DNA of 64,000 bases from the NCBI GenBank assembly GCA_965261685.1, contig CBDHDI010000027.1:344808-408807 (forward strand). The letters run 5' to 3'. Origin of the DNA: Dehalococcoidia bacterium (GTDB lineage Bacteria > Chloroflexota > Dehalococcoidia > UBA2979). Shown piece after piece: positions 6,556-49,821 of the stretch (the first letter of the stretch is position 1; each line of letters begins with the position of its first letter). A model generated the notes under the pieces. The model had not been told where the DNA came from. It saw only the letters and a program-made list of their open reading frames with translations, and ran no database searches. The position numbers were made by a program, and so were the translations under genes.

Positions 6556-7173
6556 CTACTCCCGCAGCGGGCAGGCGGCGCAGCGCTCGATCGCCGGCGG
6601 CGCGGCCTCGATGCACGCGACGCGCGCGAGCAGGCCGCGCACGGTCCAGAGCGGCAGCCCGATGACGGCACAGAGACAGCCGTCCACGCTCGCGGCCGGC
6701 GCGAACTCCGCATCCTGCACGGCGTAGCCGCCCGCCTTGTCGAACGGCTCGCCGCGGGCGATGAAGCGCCGGATCTCCTCGTCGCCGTAGTCGCGCATCG
6801 TGACGGCGGTCGTCGCCGCCTCGACGGCGTCCCGGCCCTCCGAGGCGACCGCGACCGCGCTCACCACCTCGTGGCTGCGGCCGCGCAGCGCGCCGAGCAT
6901 CGCCGCGGCCTCGTCCGCGCCGTCCGGCTTGCCGAGCACGCGCCCGTCGAGGACGACGATCGTGTCGGCGGCGATTACGGGCGCGCTCGGGTGCGCCGCC
7001 GCCGCGGCGCGCGCCTTGCGCAGCGCGAGTTGCGAGGCGCGGCGCTGCGGGTCGGGCTCCTCGCTGCTCTCCTCCACGTCGGTGGGGCGGACGACGAAGT
7101 CGAGGCCGAGCGCCGCGAGCAGGTCGCGACGGCGAGGGGAGGCCGAGGCGAGCACAGGCGTCGGCTGCCCCAC
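6556..7173 (-). CDS. maf: Maf-like nucleoside triphosphate pyrophosphatase
   Basis: Motif VLASASPRRRDLLAALG; GTG start chosen, overlapping the rlmD stop by a few bp. Confidence 0.8.
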   Translation of the reverse strand: MGQPTPVLASASPRRRDLLAALGLDFVVRPTDVEESSEEPDPQRRASQLALRKARAAAAAHPSAPVIAADTIVVLDGRVLGKPDGADEAAAMLGALRGRSHEVVSAVAVASEGRDAVEAATTAVTMRDYGDEEIRRFIARGEPFDKAGGYAVQDAEFAPAASVDGCLCAVIGLPLWTVRGLLARVACIEAAPPAIERCAACPLRE

Positions 7174-7177
7174 GCGC

Positions 7178-8464
7178 TCAGCTCGTGGCCCGGTCGAGGG
7201 TCGAGATGCACTCGATGTGCTGCGTGTGCGGGAACATGTCGATCGGCTGCAGCTCGCTGAGCTCCATGCCGCCGTCGGCAAGGCGGCGCAGATCGCGGGC
7301 GAGCGTCGCCGGATCGCACGAGACGTAGACGAGCCGCCGTACCCCCGACTCGACGATCGCGTCGATCACGGAAGCGTCGAGGCCCGCGCGTGGCGGGTCT
7401 ACGACGACGACGTCCGGAGCGGGATCGAGCGCGGGGAGCTGCTCCTCGACGGTGCCGACGATGCGGCGGACGTTGTCATACGGCGCGAGGTTGACCTCGG
7501 CGTCGTCGCCGGCGGCGGCGGACGCCTCGATCGTGACGACGTCGGGCACGACCTGTGCCAGTGCGACGGCGAACGTGCCGACGCCGGAGTAGGCGTCGGC
7601 GACGAGGCGGGGCTGGACGGCGCGGGCGCGCGCGACGACGAGCTCGATCAGGCGCTCCGCCTGGCGCGAGTTGACCTGGAAGAAGGCAGGCGAGGAGACG
7701 CGGTAGCGCGCGCCGCGCAGCAGCTCGTGGTAGTGGGGCTGGCCGCTGCGCGTGCGCCCTCGGCGGTGCGGGCGCCAGCGCAGCTTCGGCTGGACGAGCA
7801 GTTCATCGCTGTGCTCGCCCGCGCGGACGGTCAGCGCTCGCGTCTGCATCGTGCGGCCCTGCGCGTCCTGCAGCACGCGGTTGGCCGCCGGGAGCGCGAT
7901 CTCGCAGTGGTCGATGCGCAGGAAGCGATGGCTGCCGTGCTCCATGAAGCCGACCTCGCCGTCGCGCCGCACGGTGAAGCGCATGTGGTTGCGGTACGCC
8001 CAGGGGTCGGCCATGCCGATCATCTCCTGCAGCACGCCGTCGATCGCCTCGTCCTCGAAGCGGCCGATGCGGCGCAGCTGGTCGCGCACGATGCCGGTCT
8101 TGAGGCGCAGTTGCTCGCCGTACGAGATGTGCTGGAGCTGGCAGCCACCGCAGCGCCCGAAGTACTGGCAGCGCGGCTCGACACGATGCTCCGAAGGCTC
8201 GCGCACCTTGATCGTCGTGGCCTCGATGTAGGACGGCGACTCCGCCGCGATCTCGGCGAGGACGCGTTCACCGGGCATGGCGTAGTCGACGAATGCGATG
8301 CGGCCGTCGGGGGCGCGTCCGACGGCCTTGCCGCCCGCGGCGAAGCCGGTCAGCTCGATCTCGATCGGCTTGCGAGGGCGATCGAGCACGCGGCGGCGCC
8401 GCCGGCTCCTCTGGCGTCGGCGCTGGGGTGCGGGCTCTGGCGAAGCGGGATACTCGTTGCTCAC
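7178..8464 (-). CDS. rlmD: 23S rRNA (uracil-C5)-methyltransferase, RlmD/RumA family
   Basis: TRAM domain, Cys cluster CQYFGRCGGCQLQH, C-terminal class I SAM methyltransferase fold; GTG start at 8464. Confidence 0.8.
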   Translation of the reverse strand: MSNEYPASPEPAPQRRRQRSRRRRRVLDRPRKPIEIELTGFAAGGKAVGRAPDGRIAFVDYAMPGERVLAEIAAESPSYIEATTIKVREPSEHRVEPRCQYFGRCGGCQLQHISYGEQLRLKTGIVRDQLRRIGRFEDEAIDGVLQEMIGMADPWAYRNHMRFTVRRDGEVGFMEHGSHRFLRIDHCEIALPAANRVLQDAQGRTMQTRALTVRAGEHSDELLVQPKLRWRPHRRGRTRSGQPHYHELLRGARYRVSSPAFFQVNSRQAERLIELVVARARAVQPRLVADAYSGVGTFAVALAQVVPDVVTIEASAAAGDDAEVNLAPYDNVRRIVGTVEEQLPALDPAPDVVVVDPPRAGLDASVIDAIVESGVRRLVYVSCDPATLARDLRRLADGGMELSELQPIDMFPHTQHIECISTLDRATS

Positions 8465-8542
8465 GGTCTGATCGTACGCGCCGGAGGCGGCCGGGCGCGA
8501 GCGCGGGTAGCATCGGCGCTGCCGAGGCGGAAGGAATCGTCC

Positions 8543-9661
8543 GTGGTCGACGTGCCGGAACGGCTGCGCGAACTCGTGCGCGAGGTGGTCTCGATCCCGT
8601 CCGCGCCGTACCTCGAAGGGGGCGTGCGCGACTACCTGCGCGACTTCGCCGCCGCGCGCGGACTGACGCACGAGGAGGACGTGTACGGCAACGTGCGCAT
8701 CACCTACCGCCGCGGCCGCCGGCGCCGCCCCCTGGTCCTCGGTGCGCACATGGACCACCCCGGCTTCGTTGTCGAGCAGGTGCGGGGCGGGCGGCTGCGG
8801 CTCGAGTTCCGCGGCGGGCTCTCCGCCGAGTACGGCAAGGGCGAGCGCGTCGCCCTCTACCGCGAGGGCGAGCGAGCGCCGCACGCCCAGGCGCGCATCA
8901 CCTCGGTGCAGCGTGACGAGCGGCAGCGGCTGACTGGCGCCGCCGCCACGCTGGAGCGCGGCGGCGGCGAGGCTGCCGAGGGCGACCTCGCGCTCTGGGA
9001 CGTGCCCGTCTGCCGCTTCCGCGGCGACTTCGTGCAGGCGCGCGCCTGCGACGACCTCGCCGGCTGCGCCGCCGTGCTCGCAACGCTCGAACGCGTCGCC
9101 GCGGAACGGCGTAGCGGGCACCTGGTCGGTCTCTTCACGCGCGCCGAGGAGGTCGGGCTGCGAGGCGCCTCGGTCGTCGGTCGCGAGCGGCTGCTGCCGG
9201 AGGACGCGCTGGTGGTGGCCGTGGAGACATCCTCGTTCGCGGGCGGGCGGGCGGTGCAGGGCGGCGGACCGATCATCCGCGTCGGCGATGCGATCCACAT
9301 CTTCTCCCCGCTGCTGACGCAGTGGATGACGACGCTCGCGCAGGAGCTGGCGAGCGAGGAGCGCGACGGCTTCGCCTGGCAGCGGCGGTTGATGGACGGC
9401 GGCGTCACCGAGGCCACGGCCTACGACCTCTACGGCTACGAGACGGGCGCGGCCTGCATCGCACTGGGCAACTACCACAACGCCGGGCCGCGCGGCCGCG
9501 TGCGCGCGGAGACGGTGCGGCTCAGCGACCTCGAGGGCCTCGTGCGGCTCTTCGAGCGGATGCACCGCGAGGCGCCGCGCAGCGGGCGGGCGCTGCCCGC
9601 GCTGCTGCGCCGCTACGACCGGCTGGGACGCGAGGCGGCGCCGCTGCTGCGGGAGTCCTGA
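8543..9661 (+). CDS. M42-family metallopeptidase (FrvX/glutamyl aminopeptidase-like)
   Basis: GAHMDHPGF motif and metal-ligand pattern; transcribed divergently from rlmD. Confidence 0.7.
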   Translation: MVDVPERLRELVREVVSIPSAPYLEGGVRDYLRDFAAARGLTHEEDVYGNVRITYRRGRRRRPLVLGAHMDHPGFVVEQVRGGRLRLEFRGGLSAEYGKGERVALYREGERAPHAQARITSVQRDERQRLTGAAATLERGGGEAAEGDLALWDVPVCRFRGDFVQARACDDLAGCAAVLATLERVAAERRSGHLVGLFTRAEEVGLRGASVVGRERLLPEDALVVAVETSSFAGGRAVQGGGPIIRVGDAIHIFSPLLTQWMTTLAQELASEERDGFAWQRRLMDGGVTEATAYDLYGYETGAACIALGNYHNAGPRGRVRAETVRLSDLEGLVRLFERMHREAPRSGRALPALLRRYDRLGREAAPLLRES

Positions 9662-9688: not shown

Positions 9689-10273
9689 TCAGCGACCGAT
9701 CAGCGCCCAGACGGCTTCCTCGGTGTCGTGCTCGACGTGGCCCTCGCGCATCAGGCGGGTGAGCAGGCGGCTGTCGCACTCGCCGCTGGCCTCGATGTGG
9801 TCACGGATCGCCTCGCTGCGCGCCGTGTTGCCGAGCACGACGGCGAGCAGCAGCTCCCACTCGAGCGGCGTGGCGAGGACGGTGGCGCCCTCGAATGCGA
9901 TGTGTGCGCGCGCGTCCCAGAGCGAGGGGATCTCGAGCGGCGTCAGCGTGTCGTAGGCGCCGTGGAACGTCGGGTTCGCGTGCACGAAGACCGGCACGGC
10001 TCCGCGTTGGAACTGCAGCCGCGAGGCGGCCACGTGCGCGCCTCGCTCCCAGGTCGCGTCCACGCCGAGCATCTCGGCGAGGGAACGAATCGCCGGGTCG
10101 CTGGTGATGAACTCGATGTTGGCGGCGCTTACCTCGACGCCCTGCAACTGCGTCGCGGCGGCACCGACGAGGGCCCACGGCTGCGAGTCCGCGGCTTCCT
10201 CGATGATGCGCACGAGCGGGCCGAGCACGGCGTGCTGCTCGGCGTCGAGGCGAGAGCGTTCTTCTATGGTCAC
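9689..10273 (-). CDS. hypothetical protein (194 aa)
   Basis: Clean ORF with coding-like GC3; no motif recognised. Confidence 0.5.
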   Translation of the reverse strand: MTIEERSRLDAEQHAVLGPLVRIIEEAADSQPWALVGAAATQLQGVEVSAANIEFITSDPAIRSLAEMLGVDATWERGAHVAASRLQFQRGAVPVFVHANPTFHGAYDTLTPLEIPSLWDARAHIAFEGATVLATPLEWELLLAVVLGNTARSEAIRDHIEASGECDSRLLTRLMREGHVEHDTEEAVWALIGR

Positions 10274-10443
10274 CGCGCCTCCGGGTCGGGACGGCGGGAG
10301 CTATTTCGAGGGAATCATAACCTGTCGTCGATACACCGTCTCCCAGCGCTGACGGGTTGCTCACTGCTGGTGTCGAGGGGGGAGGCCCCTCGACCACTTG
10401 CGAGGGCGTGAACGCCCATGGAGTATCATGGCGCGGAGGAACG

Positions 10444-11103
10444 ATGCCCAAGCAGGTCACCAACGTCGCCGCCGACGATGCGCTGACGACGATCTACCGC
10501 CTCTCGCACGACGAGCAGGAAGAGGTGATCGCGGTACGGGTCGCCGAGCGCCTGGACATCAAGCCTGCCTCGGCGGCAGGCATGCTCACGCGCCTGCGCC
10601 GCGACAAGCTGGTCCGAATCGACGGGCGCAAGCGGATCTCGCTCAGCGGCACGGGCTTCGCGAGGGCGGAGCAGATGGTGCGCCGGCACCGCCTGGCCGA
10701 GTGCCTGCTGGTGGACACGCTCGGCCTCGAGTGGTGGCGTGCCTACGAGGAAGCGCACCTGATGGAGCATGCGATCTCGGACGTCACCGAGCCGCTGATC
10801 GTCGAGCGCCTGGGCAATCCGCACGTCTCCCCCTTCGGCTACCCGATCCCCGGCTCCCATCACGGCCACCCGCTGTCGATGCGGCGCCTCACGGACGTCG
10901 AAGCCGGCGACAGCACGACGGTCGATCGGGTCTACGAGGAAGACGAGCAGCTGCTGCGCTTCTTCGACGAAGAGGGTATCCGCCCGGGCGCGGGCTTCGA
11001 GGTAGCGGAGGTCGCCGCGTACCGGGGGACCGTGACGATTCAGCTGAACGACCGCGCGCTGGTCCTCGGTCTCGAGGCGGCGCGGCGGATTTGGGTGCCA
11101 TAG
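10444..11103 (+). CDS. ideR: DtxR/IdeR-family metal-dependent transcriptional repressor with C-terminal FeoA/SH3-like domain
   Basis: N-terminal wHTH, metal-site residues, C-terminal SH3-like domain; ATG at 10444. Confidence 0.8.
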   Translation: MPKQVTNVAADDALTTIYRLSHDEQEEVIAVRVAERLDIKPASAAGMLTRLRRDKLVRIDGRKRISLSGTGFARAEQMVRRHRLAECLLVDTLGLEWWRAYEEAHLMEHAISDVTEPLIVERLGNPHVSPFGYPIPGSHHGHPLSMRRLTDVEAGDSTTVDRVYEEDEQLLRFFDEEGIRPGAGFEVAEVAAYRGTVTIQLNDRALVLGLEAARRIWVP

Positions 11104-11122
11104 GCAGGACAGGAGCAGGACG

Positions 11123-11695
11123 ATGACACAGGTTCACGAAGCAGATGCCAGCCCGAGGGTGATCCCGAACCCGCGGAGTCTGGCCCCGGAAGCGCAGATG
11201 GCGTTTCAGTTGTTCCACGCGGCGTGGCAGGAGTTCACCTCGCTCGACCCGGTGACGGTCGACCTCTGCCGCCTGAAGTCGGCCAACCTCAACGACTGCA
11301 AGTGGTGAATCCCCGGTCGATCTGCTGCGGCGCAGCAGGATGGCATGGACGAGGAGATGGTCGCGAAGGTCCAGGACTTCGAGGCCTCTGACCTGACGGA
11401 GAAGACGAAGCTGGCGCTGCGCTTCACGGAGCGCTGGGTGGCCGCGCACGCGCAGGGCATCGACGGCGAGCTCCTGGAGCAGATGCGCGAGCACTACACG
11501 GACGAGCAGATCATCGAGCTGGCGTTGATCGTCGGCCGCTACGACACGGCGCATCGCTTCAACGTGGCGTTCGGGCTCGAGCGCGAGCTGGACGACTTCT
11601 ACAGCTTCGGCGGCCCGAAGATCCCGAAGCTGCTTGAGGACGCCCTCGAGACCCTGCGCGAGGCGCACCGGGAGCGCACGGCCCGCGAGGGGTAG
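11123..11695 (+). CDS. AhpD/carboxymuconolactone-decarboxylase-family protein interrupted by in-frame TGA (11306-11308) at the second Cys position of the CxxC motif (C-K-W-U): candidate selenoprotein, alternatively a pseudogene
   Basis: ORFs 11123-11308 and 11345-11695 are in the same frame; flanking sequence matches the CMD pattern (RLKSANLNDCKW[TGA]...EKTKLALRFTERWV); no other stop in frame. Confidence 0.55.
11322..11338 (+). promoter_or_regulatory. candidate SECIS-like stem-loop (ctgctgc-ggc-gcagcag) 13 nt downstream of the in-frame UGA
   Basis: Perfect 7-bp GC-rich inverted repeat with a G-containing apical loop at the spacing expected for bacterial SECIS. Confidence 0.35.
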
Positions 11696-11872
11696 CCGCT
11701 GGCGCGGGCGGGCGTATGGGCATGCCTGGGCTCGCCGGCGGCGGGATCCGGGCTCGTGTTGCGTGAGATCGTCCGGAGCACGACCTGAGGCTGGGGAATT
11801 GGCGACCGCGTCGCAGTTCATTGCTGCTGCGACCCATCTGCGTCACCCCAGCACGATGCCTGAGCAGCAGCG

Positions 11873-12790
11873 CTACCAGTGCCGGTTCGGCTGGTTCCAG
11901 TACTGGCTCTCCGGGTCGTCTGCCGCCGCGATCAGGCCGCTGATGTAGTCGGCGAAGTGGGTGCCGTCATCAATGAGGGCGAGCGCCTCCAACTGGGTCT
12001 CCATGCACTCGACTTCGGCGACCTTGCCGGAGCTTACGCGACCTTCAGCGTGCTGATTGCTGTGGCACGCGTCGTGAACAATCGTGCCGGCCAGCCACAC
12101 GACCTGTACTGCCCTGGAGAAGCCCGGCGCGAACGCGGTCTGGTCGCCCACGAGAAAGGTCCTGGAGAACACATCCATCCTCGAGCCGGTGCGCACGGAT
12201 CGGATCGTCGTGATCGCCTCGTGCACGCGGACGAACGCCGCCGGTGCGCGCTCGGCGATGAGTTGGAGCGCCGACAGCACCTGTGAGGTGAACTGATCGG
12301 AGCCGACGATTCTCGGCCAATCCTCCAGCGGGATCGGTAGGGGATCGGCCGGCGCGGTCGCTGTTGCGCTCGGGCTGGGCGTGGCGGTCGGGCTGGGTGT
12401 GGCGGTCGGGCTGGGTGTGGCGGTCGGGCTGGGTGTGGCGGTCGGGCTGGGTGTGGCGGTCGGGCTGGGTGTGGCGGTCGGGCTGGGTGTGGCGGTCGGG
12501 CTGGGTGTGGCGGTCGGGCTGGGTGTGGCGGTCGGGCTGGGTGTGGCCGTGGGGCTGGGTGTGGCGGTAGGGCCTGGCGTGGCGGTGGGGCTGGGTGTAG
12601 CCGTGGGGCTGGGTGTGGCGGTAGGAGCGGCCGTCCGACTGGGCCCGGACTCCGACACGGGTGGAGTCTCGGCCGTAGTTGGTGCGGTACCACCACTACA
12701 AGCAGCGGCGAGGGCCAGGGCAAGCAGAGCAAGCGCGACAAGTATCGCGCTTACAGGGATCCGCGATCTCAACCGACGGGTGGTCCGCAT
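11873..12790 (-). CDS. secreted lipoprotein with (TATPSP)n linker and C-terminal domain of unknown function
   Basis: Signal peptide plus lipobox (LALAAACSG), 14x TATPSP repeat, conserved-looking C-terminal domain (HDACHSNQH). Confidence 0.65.
   Translation of the reverse strand: MRTTRRLRSRIPVSAILVALALLALALAAACSGGTAPTTAETPPVSESGPSRTAAPTATPSPTATPSPTATPGPTATPSPTATPSPTATPSPTATPSPTATPSPTATPSPTATPSPTATPSPTATPSPTATPSPTATPSPSATATAPADPLPIPLEDWPRIVGSDQFTSQVLSALQLIAERAPAAFVRVHEAITTIRSVRTGSRMDVFSRTFLVGDQTAFAPGFSRAVQVVWLAGTIVHDACHSNQHAEGRVSSGKVAEVECMETQLEALALIDDGTHFADYISGLIAAADDPESQYWNQPNRHW
12364..12620. repeat. 18-bp tandem repeat (gggctgggtgtggcggtc) about 14 copies, encoding the TATPSP linker on the minus strand
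   Basis: Directly visible perfect or near-perfect tandem copies. Confidence 0.9.
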
Positions 12791-30515: not shown

Positions 30516-33500
30516 TCAACTACACCCGGACGTGCTCCCGCAGGACATGCACTTCAGGCAGGTGCCGTTGCGCACCATCATCATCTGGCCGCACTCCGGG
30601 CAGGGGTCGCCCTCGAAGCCGTAGTGGCGCGCTGTCGTGGGCTGGATGGCCGGGGCGGCTGCCACGGCGGTCGCGGCCACAGCTGCGGCCGAGGGCGCCT
30701 CGGGGGCCGGGCCGGCGGGGGCGGGGGCTGCCTCGGCGGCTGCGGGGGTTCCGTGGCCGTTCGAGCCGCCTGCGATCGGGGTCAGCACGTACTCGCGCGG
30801 GTCGGGCGCCGGCAGTGGCTGCGGCGCCGGCGCCGGCCACGCGCCAGCCTCGTCCTCGTCCTCCGCCGTCGAGGTGCTCGACAGGTCGACCGGCCCGAGG
30901 TGGGCGAGGTCGCCGCGGCCGAGGTAGCTGACGGCCAGCTCGCGGAAGACGTAGTCGATGATTGAGGTTGCCATGTGGATGCGGTCGTTGCCGGTGACGA
31001 TGCCGTTCGGCTCGAACTTCGTGAACAGGAAGGAGTCCACGTAGGCCTCGAGCGGCACGCCGTGCTGCAGCCCGATCGAGACGGCGATCGCGAAGCAGTT
31101 CATCAGCGAGCGGAAGGCCGCGCCGTCCTTGGACATCGAGATGAAGATCTCGCCGAGGCGCGCGTCCTCGAACTCGCCCGTGTGCAGGTAGATCGTGTGG
31201 CCACCGACCTTGGCCTTCTGCGCGAAGCCGGGACGCCGCGAGGGCAGCGGCTCGCGCTCGCCGCGCTGCAGCCCGACCAGCTTCCGCGCCAGCACGCGCG
31301 CGTCCTCCCGAGGCAGCGAACGGATGATCCGCTCCACCTCGTCCAGCGCCTGCTTCGGGTCGAGCTCCGCCGCCGCGGGCTGCTCGTCGAGGTCGTCGAG
31401 GTCGTCGAAGTCCTCGAAGTCGTCGCCGAGCACGGTGGCGGCGAGGGGCTGCGAGAGCTTGGAGCCGTCGCGGTAGAGCGCGAGCGCCTTCAGCATCGAG
31501 GCGGCTCCGGCCTCGTAGACGGCGGCGACGTCGCCGACGCTGGCGTCGTCGGGCAGGTTGATCGTCTTGCTGATCGCGCCGGAGAGGAACGGCTGCGCGG
31601 CGGCCATGATGCGCACGTGCGCCATCGCCTCGATGTAGCGCGTGCCGTAGCGGCCGCAGCGGTTGGCGCAGTCGAAGACGGCGTAGTGCTCCTCGCGCAG
31701 GTGCGGGGCGCCCTCGATCGTCATGCGGCCGACGATGTAGTCGTTGGCCTCCTCGATCTGCTCGCGCGTGAAGCCGACCGCCTCCAGCAGGTTGACGCCG
31801 GCAAGCTGCTCGTCGCTCAGGCCGAGCACGTCGCGGCAGAACTCGTCGCCGAGCACGAAGCGGTTGAAGGCGAAGGTGATGTCGAACGCCGAGCCGAGCG
31901 CCTCGTCGACCGCGTCGAGGGCGCGGCGGTTGAAGCCGTGCTGGGCGAGCGTGTGGCGGTTGATGTGCGGGGCGCCCTCGAGGCGGCCACTGCCGACGCA
32001 GTAGGTAACGATCTCCTCGACCTGCGCGGGCGTGTAGCCGAGCGTCCCCAGCGCGCCGGGGACGGACTGGTTGATGATGCGGAAGTAGCCGCCGCCGGCC
32101 AGCTTCTTGAACTTCACGAGTGCGAAGTCCGGCTCGACGCCCGTGGTGTCGCAGTCCATGAGCAGGCCGATCGTGCCGGTGGGCGCGATCAGCGTGGTCT
32201 GCGCGTTGCGGAAGCCGTGCTCCTCGCCGAGGGCGAGCGCGCGGTCCCAGGAGGCCTGCGCGGCCTCCAGCAGCGCCCTGGGGCAGTGTTTGGCGTCGAG
32301 GCTCACCGGGAGCGTTGTCAGCTCCTCGTAGTCCTCGGCGGGTGCGTCGTAGGCGGCGCGGCGGTGGTTGCGGATCACGCGCAGCATCGCGTCGCGGTTC
32401 GGCTCCCAGGCGGGGAAGGGGCCGAGCTCCGCGGCGATCTCGGCTGAGGTCGCGTAGGAGACGCCGGTCAGCAGCGCGCTGTAGCCGCCGGTCTGGGCCA
32501 GCGCCTCGGGCGAGTCGTAGGGCACGCCCTGGTGCATCAGCAGCGCGCCGAGGTTGGCGTAGCCGAGGCCGAGCGTGCGGTACTCGTGGGAGAGCCGGGC
32601 GATCACGGGGCTCGGGTACTGCGCCATCAGCACCGAGATCTCGAGCACGATCGTCCACAGCCGGGCGGCGTGCTCGTACGCGGCCACGTCGAACTCGTTG
32701 CTCTCCTCGTCGTGGAAGCGCATCAGGTTGAGCGAGGCGAGGTTGCAGGCCGTGTCGTCGAGGAACATGTACTCGGAGCAGGGGTTGGAGCCGCGGATCG
32801 GGCCGCCTGCCGGCGAGGTGTGCCACTCGTTGATCGTCGTGTCGTACTGCACGCCGGGGTCGGCCGACTGCCAGGCCGCGCGCGCGATGCGCTCCCACAG
32901 ATCGCGGGCGCGCACGGTCTTCGAGGGCTTGCCGTCGACGCGGCGGTAGAGCGTCCATTCGCGGTCCTGCTCGACGGCCTCGAGGAAGTCGGCGCTGACG
33001 CGCACGGAGTTGTTGGCGTTCTGGCCTGAGACGGTCTGGTAGGCCTCGCCCTGCCAGTCCGTGTCGAACTCGCGGAAGTCGATCGGCGCCTCGCCGGCCT
33101 CGGCGAGCTGGAGGACGCGCTGGACGCAGCCGTCCGGCACGCCGTCGCGGCGCGCGCGAGCGATGGCGCGGCGCAGCGCGCGGTTCTGCGTGGGGTCGAA
33201 GCCCTCGGCGGTCGCATCGAGGACCGCGGCCAGGCGGCGGCGGATCGTGCGCGAGCCGGCGACGAGGGCGGCGACCTTCTGCTCCTCGGCCACCTTCCAG
33301 TCGATGAACTCCTCGATATCGGGGTGGTCGACGTCGACGATCACCATCTTGGCAGCGCGGCGGGTGGTGCCGCCGGACTTGATCGCGCCGGCGGCGCGGT
33401 CGCCGATCTTGAGGAAGGACATGAGGCCGGAGGACTTGCCGCCGCCGGAGAGGAACTCGTTCTCGCCGCGGATGCGGGAGAAGTTGGAGCCCGTACCGGA

Positions 33501-34163
33501 GCCGTACTTGAAGATCCGCGCCTCGCGGGTCCAGAGGTCCATGATGCCGCCCTCGTTGACGAGGTCGTCGGCGACGGACTGGATGAAGCAGGCGTGCGGC
33601 TGCGGGCGCTCGTAGGCGCTCGTCGACTGGCGCACCTCGCCGCGCTCCGGGTCGAAGTAGGAGTGGCCCTGCGAGGGGCCGGCGATGCCGTAGGCCCAGT
33701 GCAGGCCGGTGTTGAACCACTGCGGCGAGTTGGGCGCGGCGCGCTGCGTCGCCATCATCAGGATCAGCTCGTCATGGAAGGCGCGGGCGTCTTCCTCGCT
33801 GTCGAAGTAGCCGTGCTTCCAGCCCCAGTAGGTCCAGGTGCCGGCGAGGCGGTGGAAGACCTGGCCCGCGTCGCTCTCGCCGCCGGAGTCGTCGGAGCCC
33901 GCGGCGGGCTCGGAGCGCCAGAGCCACTCCGGCACGCCGTCCTCCTCGAGGGCGACGAGGTCGTCGGCGATGCCGGTCTTGCGGAAGTACTTCTGCGCCA
34001 TGATGTCGACGGCGACCTGCGACCAGCCGGCGGGCATGCGGATGCCGGCCGCCTCGAAGACGGCCGACCCGTCGGGGTTGACGATGCGCGAATCCCTGGG
34101 CGCGAAGGCGACTCCTTCGAGCGGATCCTGACCCGAGGTGGTGAAGTGTCGTTCGATGCGCAT
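30516..34163 (-). CDS. nrdJ: adenosylcobalamin-dependent (class II) ribonucleotide reductase
   Basis: Class II RNR core motifs, C-terminal Cys-rich zinc ribbon CPECG...[13 protein letters not shown]; start taken at MRIERHF. Confidence 0.9.
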
Positions 34164-34392
34164 AGCCTGCTCCCGCGACTCGGCAGTATTCGCGGTCGGC
34201 GGCAGTACGCCTCCCGCGCCCCCCATACCCCCTGGGCCCGAAAAATCACCGCGGGCAGGCGCCTGTTGGCACTGCGCACCTGCATGAGCGGGTGAGCGTC
34301 AAGGGACGGCAGATTAGCCTTTTTCGGGGCGACCTGTCAATGCGCGAACACGCCTGAGCAATTGCTCTGCGGAGCCGATCCCGAACGCCCGA

Positions 34393-47306: not shown

Positions 47307-48335
47307 CTACTCCAGACCGCGCTCCGCGATCAGCGCGCAGAGGTCCGCGAGGCGGCACGAGTAGCCGTACTCGTTGTCGTACCAGGCCATCGTCTTCGCC
47401 ATCCGGCCACCGTCCACCACCATCGTCGACGGCACGTCGAAGATCGAGGATCCGGGGTGGCTCTTGAAGTCCGTCGAGACCAGCTCCTCGCGCTCGGCGT
47501 AGAGGATGCCCTTCATCGGGCCGTCCGCCGCCGCCTGGAAGGCCTCGTTGATCTCCTCGACCGAGGCGGGGCGCTTCAGATCCGTTGCCAGGTCCACCAC
47601 CGAGACGGTCGGCGTCGGCACGCGGTAGGCGATGCCGGTCAGCTTGCCCTTCAGCTCCGGGACGATCTGCGCCACCGCGCCGGCCGCGCCCGTCGAGGTC
47701 GGCACGATGTTGAGGCCGGCCGCCCGCGCGCGCCGCAGGTCGCTGTGCTTCGAGTCGACGAGGTTCTGGTCGCGCGTGTAGGCGTGGATCGTGGTCATCA
47801 TCCCGCGCTCGATGCCGAACGCGTCGTGCAGCACCTTGACCACGGGCACGACGCAGTTGGTGGTGCAGGAGCCGGCGCTGATCACGTGGTGGCGGGCGGG
47901 GTCGTACTCGTCCTGGTTGACGCCGAGGATGACCATCCAGTCCTCGTTCTTGCCCGGCGCCGAGATGATCACCTTGCGCACCGAGTCGCGCAGGTGCTGG
48001 CCCGCGGTCTCGCGGTCGCGGAACGCGCCGGTCGATTCGACGACGACGTCGGCGCCCACGCTGCCCCAGTCGATCCGCGACGGGTCGTCCTCCTCGAAGA
48101 CACGCACCTCGTGGCCCTCGACGAGGAAGCGGCCCTCGCCGTTCGTGACCTCGGCGGGGAAGCGGCCGTAGTCGGAGTCGTAGCGCAGCAGGTGTGTGTG
48201 CATCGCGACCGGGCTGCGGCCGTTGATGGCGACCACATCGAAGTTGTCGCGATGGCGTTCCCACCAGGCGCGCAGGAACTGGCGTCCGGTGCGGCCGAAG
48301 CCGTTGATGCCGACACGGAGCTTCGAGGTGGTCAT
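47307..48335 (-). CDS. gap: glyceraldehyde-3-phosphate dehydrogenase, type I
   Basis: NGFGRTGR NAD motif, active site SCTTNC. Confidence 0.95.
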   Translation of the reverse strand: MTTSKLRVGINGFGRTGRQFLRAWWERHRDNFDVVAINGRSPVAMHTHLLRYDSDYGRFPAEVTNGEGRFLVEGHEVRVFEEDDPSRIDWGSVGADVVVESTGAFRDRETAGQHLRDSVRKVIISAPGKNEDWMVILGVNQDEYDPARHHVISAGSCTTNCVVPVVKVLHDAFGIERGMMTTIHAYTRDQNLVDSKHSDLRRARAAGLNIVPTSTGAAGAVAQIVPELKGKLTGIAYRVPTPTVSVVDLATDLKRPASVEEINEAFQAAADGPMKGILYAEREELVSTDFKSHPGSSIFDVPSTMVVDGGRMAKTMAWYDNEYGYSCRLADLCALIAERGLE

Positions 48336-48428
48336 GCGGTCATCCTCTCGCGGCCCGGGGAGAGGGAAGCGACGGCCTGCCCCGATTCTACCGCCTTGGC
48401 CTCTGTCCGCGAGGGGGAGGGCGGCCAG

Positions 48429-49325
48429 TCAGAGCAGGATGCGCTTCGGGGCGTCACCGGGGCGGCGGCGGAAGTTGACGATCAGGTGCCGGCGCCGCTC
48501 CTCGGCGTCCGTGTACTCCTCGAGGCGGCAGCGATCGCCGCCGGCGAGCAGCTGCTCGTTGGCGCGGACGTGCGCGACCGCCTCGTCGCGCAACTCCTGC
48601 GCTGCGGGGAAGTGCTCGCGCGCGTGCAGCGCGAGGTGCAGCTGGCTGGCGTCGATCTGCAGCAGCCAGCCGAGCAGCAGCTGCGCCCAGCCGAGGTGGA
48701 ACGCCTCGTCGGCGAAGACGAGCGGATAGCGGCGCTGGCCGGCGTCCCCGGCCGTGAACAGCGCCGTCGGCCCGAAGTTGGGACGCCCGAGGTCGCCCGC
48801 GGCGCGATAGATCGGGCGCAGCGCGGCGTCGCGGGCGATCGCCTCGCCGCCGAAGAAGTGGCCGAGGCCAACGTGCTCGGCGCGCGCCGCCTCGTCGCGC
48901 TCGTAGGCCGCGACGGCCCAGTGAGCGAAGGCGTCGGGCTCCTCGTGCAGCGCCGCCTGCGCGGCGACGTGCTCGATCGCCTGGCGGATCAGCGGGGCGG
49001 CGCTCTGGTAGGCGCCGCGGCGCACGAGGGCGACGGCGTCCGAGGCGCTGAGCAGCGCGCGGCTCCAGAGGCTGGCGAGCGCGGCCATCCGCATCGTGCG
49101 CGCCGAGGGCGTGTAGCCGCTGGCGGCGATCCGCACCTGCACGTCGAGCCCGGCCTCGAGGCGCTGCAGCTCCTCGCCGAGCAGGAAGCCGCTTTGCCGC
49201 CAGGCGTCGGCGGCCGCGGTCGAGAGCCCGTCGGGCTTGCCGGGCAGCGTCCAGCCCTCGGGCACGCGCATCCCGGACACACGCTGCGGCGGGTCGAGGG
49301 CGGGCAGGCCGCCGTTGCTGGTCAT
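48429..49325 (-). CDS. hypothetical protein (298 aa, helical)
   Basis: ORF with coding-like composition; start set at internal ATG 49325; no motif recognised. Confidence 0.4.
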   Translation of the reverse strand: MTSNGGLPALDPPQRVSGMRVPEGWTLPGKPDGLSTAAADAWRQSGFLLGEELQRLEAGLDVQVRIAASGYTPSARTMRMAALASLWSRALLSASDAVALVRRGAYQSAAPLIRQAIEHVAAQAALHEEPDAFAHWAVAAYERDEAARAEHVGLGHFFGGEAIARDAALRPIYRAAGDLGRPNFGPTALFTAGDAGQRRYPLVFADEAFHLGWAQLLLGWLLQIDASQLHLALHAREHFPAAQELRDEAVAHVRANEQLLAGGDRCRLEEYTDAEERRRHLIVNFRRRPGDAPKRILL

Positions 49326-49434
49326 GCCGGCATTGTGGCGGATCGGCGGGGAACGGGGCAGGCTCGCGCCCTCCCGGTCGCCGCCGATGCTACGATCCGC
49401 CGTGCGACCGCTCTCACGCCGAACGGAGCTGCCG

Positions 49435-49821
49435 ATGACGACCGCAGCGGCCGATGCCACCCGCGTCTTCGCCGACGCCCGCCGGATGCAAGAGTCCGCC
49501 CTGCGGCGGATGGCGGCCGGTGACATCCGCGACGCGGCGGAAAAGGCGTGATGCGCAGCCAAACGCGCCACCGACGCGCTGATCCTCGCCCGTACCGGCG
49601 AGGAGCCCCGGCGCTCCACGGACACAGGCAGCGGACTGCGCGCACTTGAGCGGGTCGAGCCGGACGCCGGTTCCCTGCGCGCTCGCTACTACGAGCGGCA
49701 GGGCGCCCTCCACGGCGAGTGCTTCTACATCGGCCTGTGTGAGCCCGTCGAGGGTATCGAACGCCTGATCCGCGAGACCGCCGACTATATCGAGGACGCC
49801 CGGCGGCTCGCCGAGGTGTGA
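49435..49821 (+). pseudogene. HEPN-domain gene with an in-frame TGA (49549-49551) at the conserved AEKA[W] position
   Basis: Continuous frame either side of the TGA gives a HEPN pattern (DIRDAAEKA*CAAKRATDALILARTGEE...); TGA is one substitution from TGG. Confidence 0.5.

Follow-up and report, generated by a model that had tools for sequence, protein, structure and literature searches.

Within the 64-kb stretch of Dehalococcoidia DNA analysed here (hereafter the window), two open reading frames (ORFs) on the forward strand lie directly downstream of ideR, a gene for an IdeR/DtxR-family regulator. The first runs for 61 codons from an ATG at 11123 to a TGA at 11306-11308, and the second, in frame with it, for 116 codons from an ATG at 11345 to a TAG at 11693-11695. 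Only the TGA at 11306-11308 parts the two (11123-11308 and 11345-11695), as an earlier sequence-only reading of this DNA had claimed and as the coordinates and translation bear out. Reading through the TGA gives a protein of 190 residues (...NLNDC59-K-W-*62-IPGR66SAAAQQDGM75DEE...). From the comparisons set out below, we consider it very probable that 11123-11695 is a single 190-codon gene of the AhpD/CMD type with its in-frame UGA recoded as selenocysteine (Sec62); as to the codon itself, the same comparisons indicate that UGA 11306-11308 almost certainly encodes selenocysteine (Sec).

The complete coding sequence of the putative selenoprotein (11123-11695, 190 codons including Sec62) was delimited using the read-through translation, the Pfam CMD match, profile matches to structures in the PDB and homologous loci, and all features of the gene named here are on the forward strand. 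An AGGAG at 11111-11115, 7 nt before ATG 11123, reads as a Shine-Dalgarno-like element and would serve as its ribosome-binding site. The Asp47 codon (11261-11263) is placed by the alignments at the Glu position of the AhpD signature E-x11-CxxC, and the redox motif C59-K-W-U62 (TGC AAG TGG TGA, 11297-11308) was identified from the translation and its alignment to CxxC relatives. The last codon of that motif, the in-frame UGA read as Sec62 (11306-11308), is a TGA in all Sec-type relatives. Between it and the ATG chosen by gene callers are twelve codons, IPGRSAAAQQDG (11309-11344), which vary mostly synonymously among relatives, as expected of translated codons, and which we call the linker. A hairpin of the selenocysteine insertion sequence (SECIS) type, recognised from its fold and its covariation, occupies 11322-11338, starting 13 nt after the UGA.

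As a protein query, the read-through product retrieved 16 close relatives, all of 108-120 aa and all representing the C-terminal half alone. On their contigs we always found the same arrangement, an ORF of 61-70 codons, a gap of 36-48 nt and an ORF of 112-116 codons, and the read-through alignment showed that the N-terminal halves are conserved among the homologous loci as well. The "gap" from TGA to ATG is itself conserved as protein, with the pattern IPGR[SA][AV]AAQ[QR]xG. Across about 25 Dehalococcoidia/Chloroflexi loci with 60-95% amino acid identity, the TGA was invariant at one column. A scan of species-representative genomes added ten further loci at 86-95% identity, with the TGA in 10/10; these lie in metagenome-assembled genomes (MAGs) that carry the label Dehalococcoidia bacterium or Chloroflexi bacterium and include several chromosomes of ~3.2-3.6 Mb. 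A complete genome of the lineage (OZ252046.1) encodes a protein 95% identical to the one described here; together with OZ250164.1 it represents complete chromosomes in which the gene is found at 92-95% identity.

We then compared 13 length-matched Dehalococcoidia loci codon by codon, counting pairwise codon differences. For codons 1-61, 63% of the differences were synonymous, a share that was 70% over codons 13-61, and third codon positions varied most. In the twelve linker codons we counted 106 synonymous and 47 non-synonymous pairwise differences (69% synonymous), with Gly written as GGT or GGG, Arg as CGA, CGG, CGC or CGT and Ser as TCT or TCC; the more distant loci L002, L007 and L009 added synonymous GGA, GGC and AGG. 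Arg66, which lies inside the linker, is nearly invariant family-wide. This predominance of synonymous variation shows that the linker is translated in this frame, which requires ribosomes to pass the UGA. Thus two properties expected of a selenoprotein gene, coding constraint on either side of the UGA and conservation of the UGA among orthologues, were both found at this locus, and the conserved in-frame UGA is functional.

The sequence-only reading had also placed the UGA where AhpD/CMD proteins carry the second redox Cys of their CxxC motif. Alignment to Cys-containing homologues and to solved AhpD-like structures supports this placement. Cys, encoded by TGC or TGT, occupies the UGA column in the closest full-length relative, P0021 (CKMCQVSR; ...DLCRIKSAFLNGCKMCQVSR...), in P0017 and proteobacterial loci (CGYCGTVR), in an actinomycete (CRIC, as in L026), in L033 (planctomycete CDYCSHYH), and in a marine group (CQFCVNSH; CQFC in L059). 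The Cys-type homologues are single uninterrupted ORFs. In the structures, the column corresponds to the second Cys of PA0269 (NGCAYCVNMH) and of Bmp8 (CMYC). Homologues with Cys at the position aligned with the UGA, a further hallmark of selenoproteins, are therefore at hand.

Membership of the AhpD/CMD superfamily was marginal by Pfam and strong by structure: the read-through protein scored 23.9 bits against CMD PF02627, for which the cut-off is 23, and the family profile matched PA0269 (2o4d) with E = 2.6e-24 over ~135 residues, Atu0492 with E = 1.6e-20, the Bmp8 debrominase (6ohi) with E = 1.4e-16 and AhpD 6k40 with E = 1.1e-12. The canonical signature E-x11-C-x2-C-x3-H is replaced in this clade by D47-x11-C59-x2-U62-x3-R66, which retains its spacing and the acidic residue twelve positions before the first Cys. 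Outside the clade, almost every Sec- or Cys-type relative has Glu aligned with Asp47. The motif His is Arg in the clade and in most Sec- and Cys-type relatives, being kept only in the groups with LASH and NSH. Among curated families, NCBIfam NF053654 ("YciW-related (seleno)protein", an equivalog model) and TIGR01926 ("peroxidase-related enzyme") gave the highest scores with this protein and with every one of its Sec- and Cys-type relatives; both are AhpD-superfamily models that include selenoproteins. The protein reached neither cut-off (43.7 vs 310 bits for NF053654, where relatives scored 31-80 bits, and 21.7 vs 81.8 bits for TIGR01926, where a CQYU-LASH relative came closest with 81.4 bits), and is thus a relative of these families and not a member. 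Judged from these alignments and scores, the clade is an uncurated branch of the known AhpD-type selenoprotein kind.

Thirteen nucleotides beyond the UGA, the RNA is predicted by RNAfold to form a perfect 7-bp hairpin, in which CTGCTGC (11322-11328) pairs with GCAGCAG (11332-11338) around a GGC loop (11329-11331), and which can be extended by a G-U pair (11321/11339) and a weaker lower stem. Considered as a single sequence, this hairpin is unremarkable. Perfect 7-bp hairpins occur at 1.5 per kb in the window, and such a hairpin starts 8-20 nt beyond 6 of its 676 TGAs (0.9%). The case for a SECIS therefore rests on comparison with relatives, for which we assembled 40 distinct Sec-type and 21 distinct Cys-type downstream sequences, including those from a metagenome scan. 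In 33 of 35 distinct Sec contexts, the UGA was followed, without gaps, by 13 nt, a 7-bp stem, a 3-nt loop (mostly GGC) and the return stem, and the first G of the loop was invariant. Between groups the stem reads CUGCUGC/GCAGCAG, CCGCUGC/GCAGCGG, CUGUUGC/GCAACAG, CUGCACA/UGUGCAG, CCGCCUU/AAGGCGG, UUGCAUC/GAUGCAA or CCGCUGA/UCAGCGG. Among 34 distinct Sec-type sequences, 95% of cells were paired and all seven pairs showed double compensatory changes (61 cells), giving a covariation score of 0.684 compared with 0.204 for shuffled alignments; none of 500 shuffles reached the observed score, and moving the partner by 1-3 columns as a control left only 17-53% of cells paired. Certain compensatory changes alter the encoded residue (Ala to Val, Gln to Arg), which indicates selection on RNA structure. 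In the 21 distinct downstream sequences of Cys-type relatives, we found no hairpin fixed at the corresponding position.

A small apical loop containing G, located just downstream of the UGA, is a stated common feature of bacterial SECIS elements (PMC1088965), and a covarying stem-loop of this description is what we observed. The hairpin resembles the bacterial SECIS, for which Escherichia coli fdhF is the paradigm, in lying within the coding sequence 3' of the UGA and in its small loop with G (PMC1088965); the distance from UGA to loop is 23 nt. The geometry that the sequence-only reading had attributed to this hairpin was thus confirmed, in that it folds as predicted and is held at a fixed distance, with covarying stems, in relatives.

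Several observations nonetheless weigh against recoding as Sec. The 61-nt fold containing the hairpin was no stabler than dinucleotide shuffles of itself (z = -0.57), a value that follows from the 70% GC of the window. A search of Rfam with the hairpin region gave only chance-level matches and no family. The SECIS of E. coli fdhF has a GGUC loop and a bulged U, whereas here a plain 7-bp stem carries a GGC loop of 3 nt, with neither of those elements. Using tblastn with E. coli SelA, SelB and SelD, we found no selA, selB or selD in the 64-kb window or in the fetched homologous loci with their flanks, and ARAGORN and Rfam found no selenocysteine tRNA (tRNA-Sec) in the window and the fetched flanks; these negatives are uninformative, because the window spans 64 kb and the genomes of close relatives are about 3.5 Mb. 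One ARAGORN call, a "tRNA-???" of 95 nt at 33636-33730 on the forward strand, was considered as a tRNA-Sec and rejected, having a four-base anticodon (gcga) and no match to the Rfam tRNA model. It sits within a 1261-codon ORF on the reverse strand (30516-34298) with high G+C at third codon positions (GC3) and is most likely a false positive. As background for the lineage, BSepDB lists Dehalococcoidia MAGs with 46-49 selenoprotein genes, and MAGs of this class rank among the most selenoprotein-rich bacteria (PMC13326102).

Three other accounts of the TGA can be set against this evidence. A split gene, in which translation stops at UGA 11306 and restarts at ATG 11345 to yield 61-aa and 116-aa products acting separately or in a complex, is how public annotation in effect treats these loci, since every gene call there takes the form of 61-70 aa plus 112-116 aa; the Dehalococcoidia clade does, moreover, have an ATG preceded by an AGGA-like purine run before residue 75. 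We nevertheless regard this account as very improbable. It leaves the protein-level conservation of the twelve linker codons, with their mostly synonymous variation and the nearly invariant Arg66, without a cause, and it would cut the CxxC active site after its first Cys, while the Cys-type homologues are uninterrupted. The position of Met75 is also occupied by Leu, Val, Trp or Ile in other Sec-type subfamilies, which have no start codon there. The sequence-only reading had retained a fresh nonsense mutation as its alternative to recoding, and an in-frame stop within a conserved domain does resemble a lesion when seen in isolation. A recent mutation or a sequencing error, making this a pseudogene or an assembly artefact, would however have to account for an identical TGA in about 25 independent assemblies and dozens of distant metagenomic relatives, as well as for purifying selection on both sides of the TGA, and with the codon invariant in this way the proposal can be dismissed; of the three accounts it is the least probable, its chance being close to negligible.

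The remaining account accepts read-through and has the UGA decoded as something other than Sec, through a reassigned code (Trp or Gly), a suppressor tRNA or near-cognate insertion of Cys or Trp. That the Sec machinery was not seen in 64 kb would agree with it. At other sites in the window, however, TGA serves as a regular stop: it terminates 12 of 24 confident long, high-GC3 ORFs, and it ends the conserved gene just upstream of ideR (9689-10273, reverse strand) here as well as in four related genomes. The protein conservation of that gene halts exactly at its TGA in all five genomes, the opposite of what is seen at TGA 11306. A scan of the whole window for TGAs with a high-GC3 open frame on both sides gave no second Sec candidate, and 11306 is the only TGA in the window with protein-like conserved sequence on both sides. 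Since hairpins that covary and keep a fixed distance mark SelB-dependent recoding and not general suppression, we consider non-Sec decoding less probable again than a split gene, though not as remote as a mutation or error. In the same scan, 47307-49685 (reverse strand) was examined as a second Sec gene, its ORFs sharing a frame and being parted by a single TGA (48429-48431), and was rejected; on translation they prove to be adjacent neighbours, one a gene for a hypothetical protein and the next an independent GAPDH gene, which has a start of its own (MTTSKLRVGINGFG...).

If the UGA is recoded as Sec, the hairpin at 11322-11338, with its GGC loop, would act as a bacterial SECIS and bring SelB-GTP with Sec-tRNA(Sec) to a ribosome stalled at the UGA, and translation would then run on through IPGRS... 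to the TAG at 11693. Cys59-x-x-Sec62 would form the redox pair of a thiol-selenol oxidoreductase. In the cycle we propose, Sec62 would attack an oxidised substrate or partner, for example a peroxide or an oxidised peroxiredoxin-type protein, and the resulting Cys59-Sec62 selenenylsulfide would be re-reduced by a thiol donor. Compared with PA0269 (PDB 2o4d/2ijc) and the AhpD of the Mycobacterium tuberculosis type (CxxCxxxH), the protein has CxxU aligned on CxxC and keeps an acidic residue at the twelfth position ahead of the first Cys, but differs in having Sec for the second Cys, Arg for His and Asp for Glu. There is no AhpC/peroxiredoxin gene adjacent to the selenoprotein gene. The tetrabromopyrrole debrominase Bmp8 (PDB 6ohi), also of the CMD fold, has its CMYC in the same columns. 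Bmp8 has been likened in its strategy to thyroid deiodinase, a selenoenzyme. Because of this likeness to Bmp8 in fold and in the placement of CxxC, together with the missing AhpD His, one may imagine the CxxUxxxR clade as a Sec-dependent reductive dehalogenase or other non-peroxide reductase in a metal-linked ideR operon. We think this very improbable; Bmp8 is a more distant match than the proteins of the PA0269 type, and a halogenated substrate is unsupported for the present protein.

Many more distant relatives came from the metagenome scan, and a large proportion of them had TGA at the same column, with the motifs CATU-KLSR, CRTU-QRSR, CFTU-KRGR, CKQU, CQYU/CDYU-LASH, CSTU and CPTU. Two of the loci with TGA at this column are in MAGs assigned to Dormiibacterota (L025) and Solirubrobacteraceae (L031). 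Given the TGA and hairpin in such distant relatives, we infer that Sec use in this branch of AhpD spans several phyla. Standard gene callers would split these distant genes likewise. Metagenome contigs with both the TGA at the column and a downstream hairpin comprised L035-L056, L060, L065, L070, L080, L082 and L083. The distant Sec-type relatives came from soil, freshwater and marine metagenomes, and the 13-nt spacing was kept in nearly all of them. Four marine contigs of the CATU-KLSR type (L065, L070, L082 and L083) share a frame change after ...EREKLALRFA that gives ...DGAFGSHHR*, which might reflect a genuine truncation, or else a fused or overlapping gene, and not a random assembly error.

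Selenoproteins of this general kind are well established, and the sequence-only reading was right in pointing to AhpD-like selenoproteins from metagenomes, in which CxxU members are documented. AhpD-like/CMD CxxU selenoproteins were described from the Sargasso Sea in 2005, and in the Global Ocean Sampling (GOS) data they ranked with the most abundant families, AhpD-like 1 having 299 sequences and AhpD-like 2 (pfam02627) 70 (PMC1088965, PMC2398784). A 2026 review covers several curated AhpD-type Sec families, with TIGR01926 listed as "AhpD-like protein", CxxU (PMC13188914); AhpD-like and CMD CxxU selenoproteins are thus an established family (PMC1088965, PMC2398784, PMC13188914). Compared by description only, the present protein resembles the Sargasso/GOS families AhpD-like 1 (COG2128), AhpD-like 2 and "CMD domain-containing protein" in having a PF02627 domain, Sec in place of the second Cys, widespread Cys homologues and a small hairpin with G in its loop downstream of the UGA; it differs in that its clade has CxxUxxxR, with Arg for the AhpD His, and adjoins ideR. 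It is, then, an ordinary member of a selenoprotein family known since 2005, in a class known for large selenoproteomes.

The main value of the finding is for annotation, and knowledge of Sec decoding is unchanged by it. Every public gene call that we retrieved for the gene and its Sec-type relatives was split into "hypothetical protein" entries of 61-70 aa and 112-116 aa, and among the best 20 representatives of 50%-identity clusters matching the C-terminal half, 18 start within 14 residues of the truncation point. This fits with there being no curated model by which an annotation pipeline would recognise the Sec codon of the clade, and selenoproteomes are therefore undercounted in these Dehalococcoidia and in soil and marine metagenomes. 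The finding also adds an AhpD site of the variant form CxxUxxxR, a clear illustration of a SECIS in which position and GGC loop are fixed while the stem covaries across phyla, and a conserved ideR-selenoprotein gene pair with possible metal-responsive control.

The regulator gene of that pair (10444-11103, forward strand; 219 codons from ATG 10444) matches the Pfam families Fe_dep_repress, Fe_dep_repr_C and FeoA. Its stop is separated from the selenoprotein start by 19 nt, and from this short gap the two genes are probably co-transcribed. In 17 related loci, all of the closest clade, ideR is immediately upstream and the order M42 peptidase, hypothetical protein, ideR, selenoprotein, major facilitator superfamily (MFS) transporter is kept; the pairing is absent from relatives with 60-66% identity and from all distant ones. 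The sequence-only reading took the adjacency to ideR as consistent with its proposal. The adjacency itself is real, but it is weak evidence for function because it is conserved only in the closest clade, and a regulatory link from ideR to the selenoprotein gene is at present a suggestion from gene order. No match to the actinobacterial 19-bp IdeR box was found in the window with up to 3 mismatches, and that consensus may not be the one used in this lineage; nor were promoter- or terminator-like sites found in 10200-12000 by scans that included a simple sigma-70 search. An inverted repeat at 10372-10394, upstream of ideR, was set aside, as it is not conserved in relatives.

Just upstream of ideR, a block at 10398-10446 on the forward strand, comprising TTGCGA (10398-10403), GAGTATCAT (10421-10429) and GGAGG-N4-ATG, is kept nearly base for base in most of 16 related loci, whereas beyond it, farther from ideR, the sequences differ. 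It was not among the sites called by the simple sigma-70 scan. From its conservation, it is likely to be the promoter and leader of the ideR-selenoprotein pair.

Downstream of the selenoprotein gene, a stretch of ~1.2 kb before the MFS gene is filled by a 305-codon ORF on the reverse strand (11873-12790) with an N-terminal signal- or lipoprotein-like segment. Inside it, a tandem repeat at 12362-12622 consists of about 14.5 copies of an 18-bp unit encoding (PTATPS)n. The syntenic loci L001 and L091 lack this stretch, and there the MFS gene is reached after 70-80 nt. Upstream, the window has very long overlapping ORFs on opposite strands (6800-9661, forward, and 7178-9565, reverse), as is typical of DNA with 70% G+C, and in the window a long ORF does not by itself indicate a gene. 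Synteny with L091 points to a tRNA U5-methyltransferase-family gene on the reverse strand and an M42 peptidase gene on the forward strand as the genuine genes of this region.

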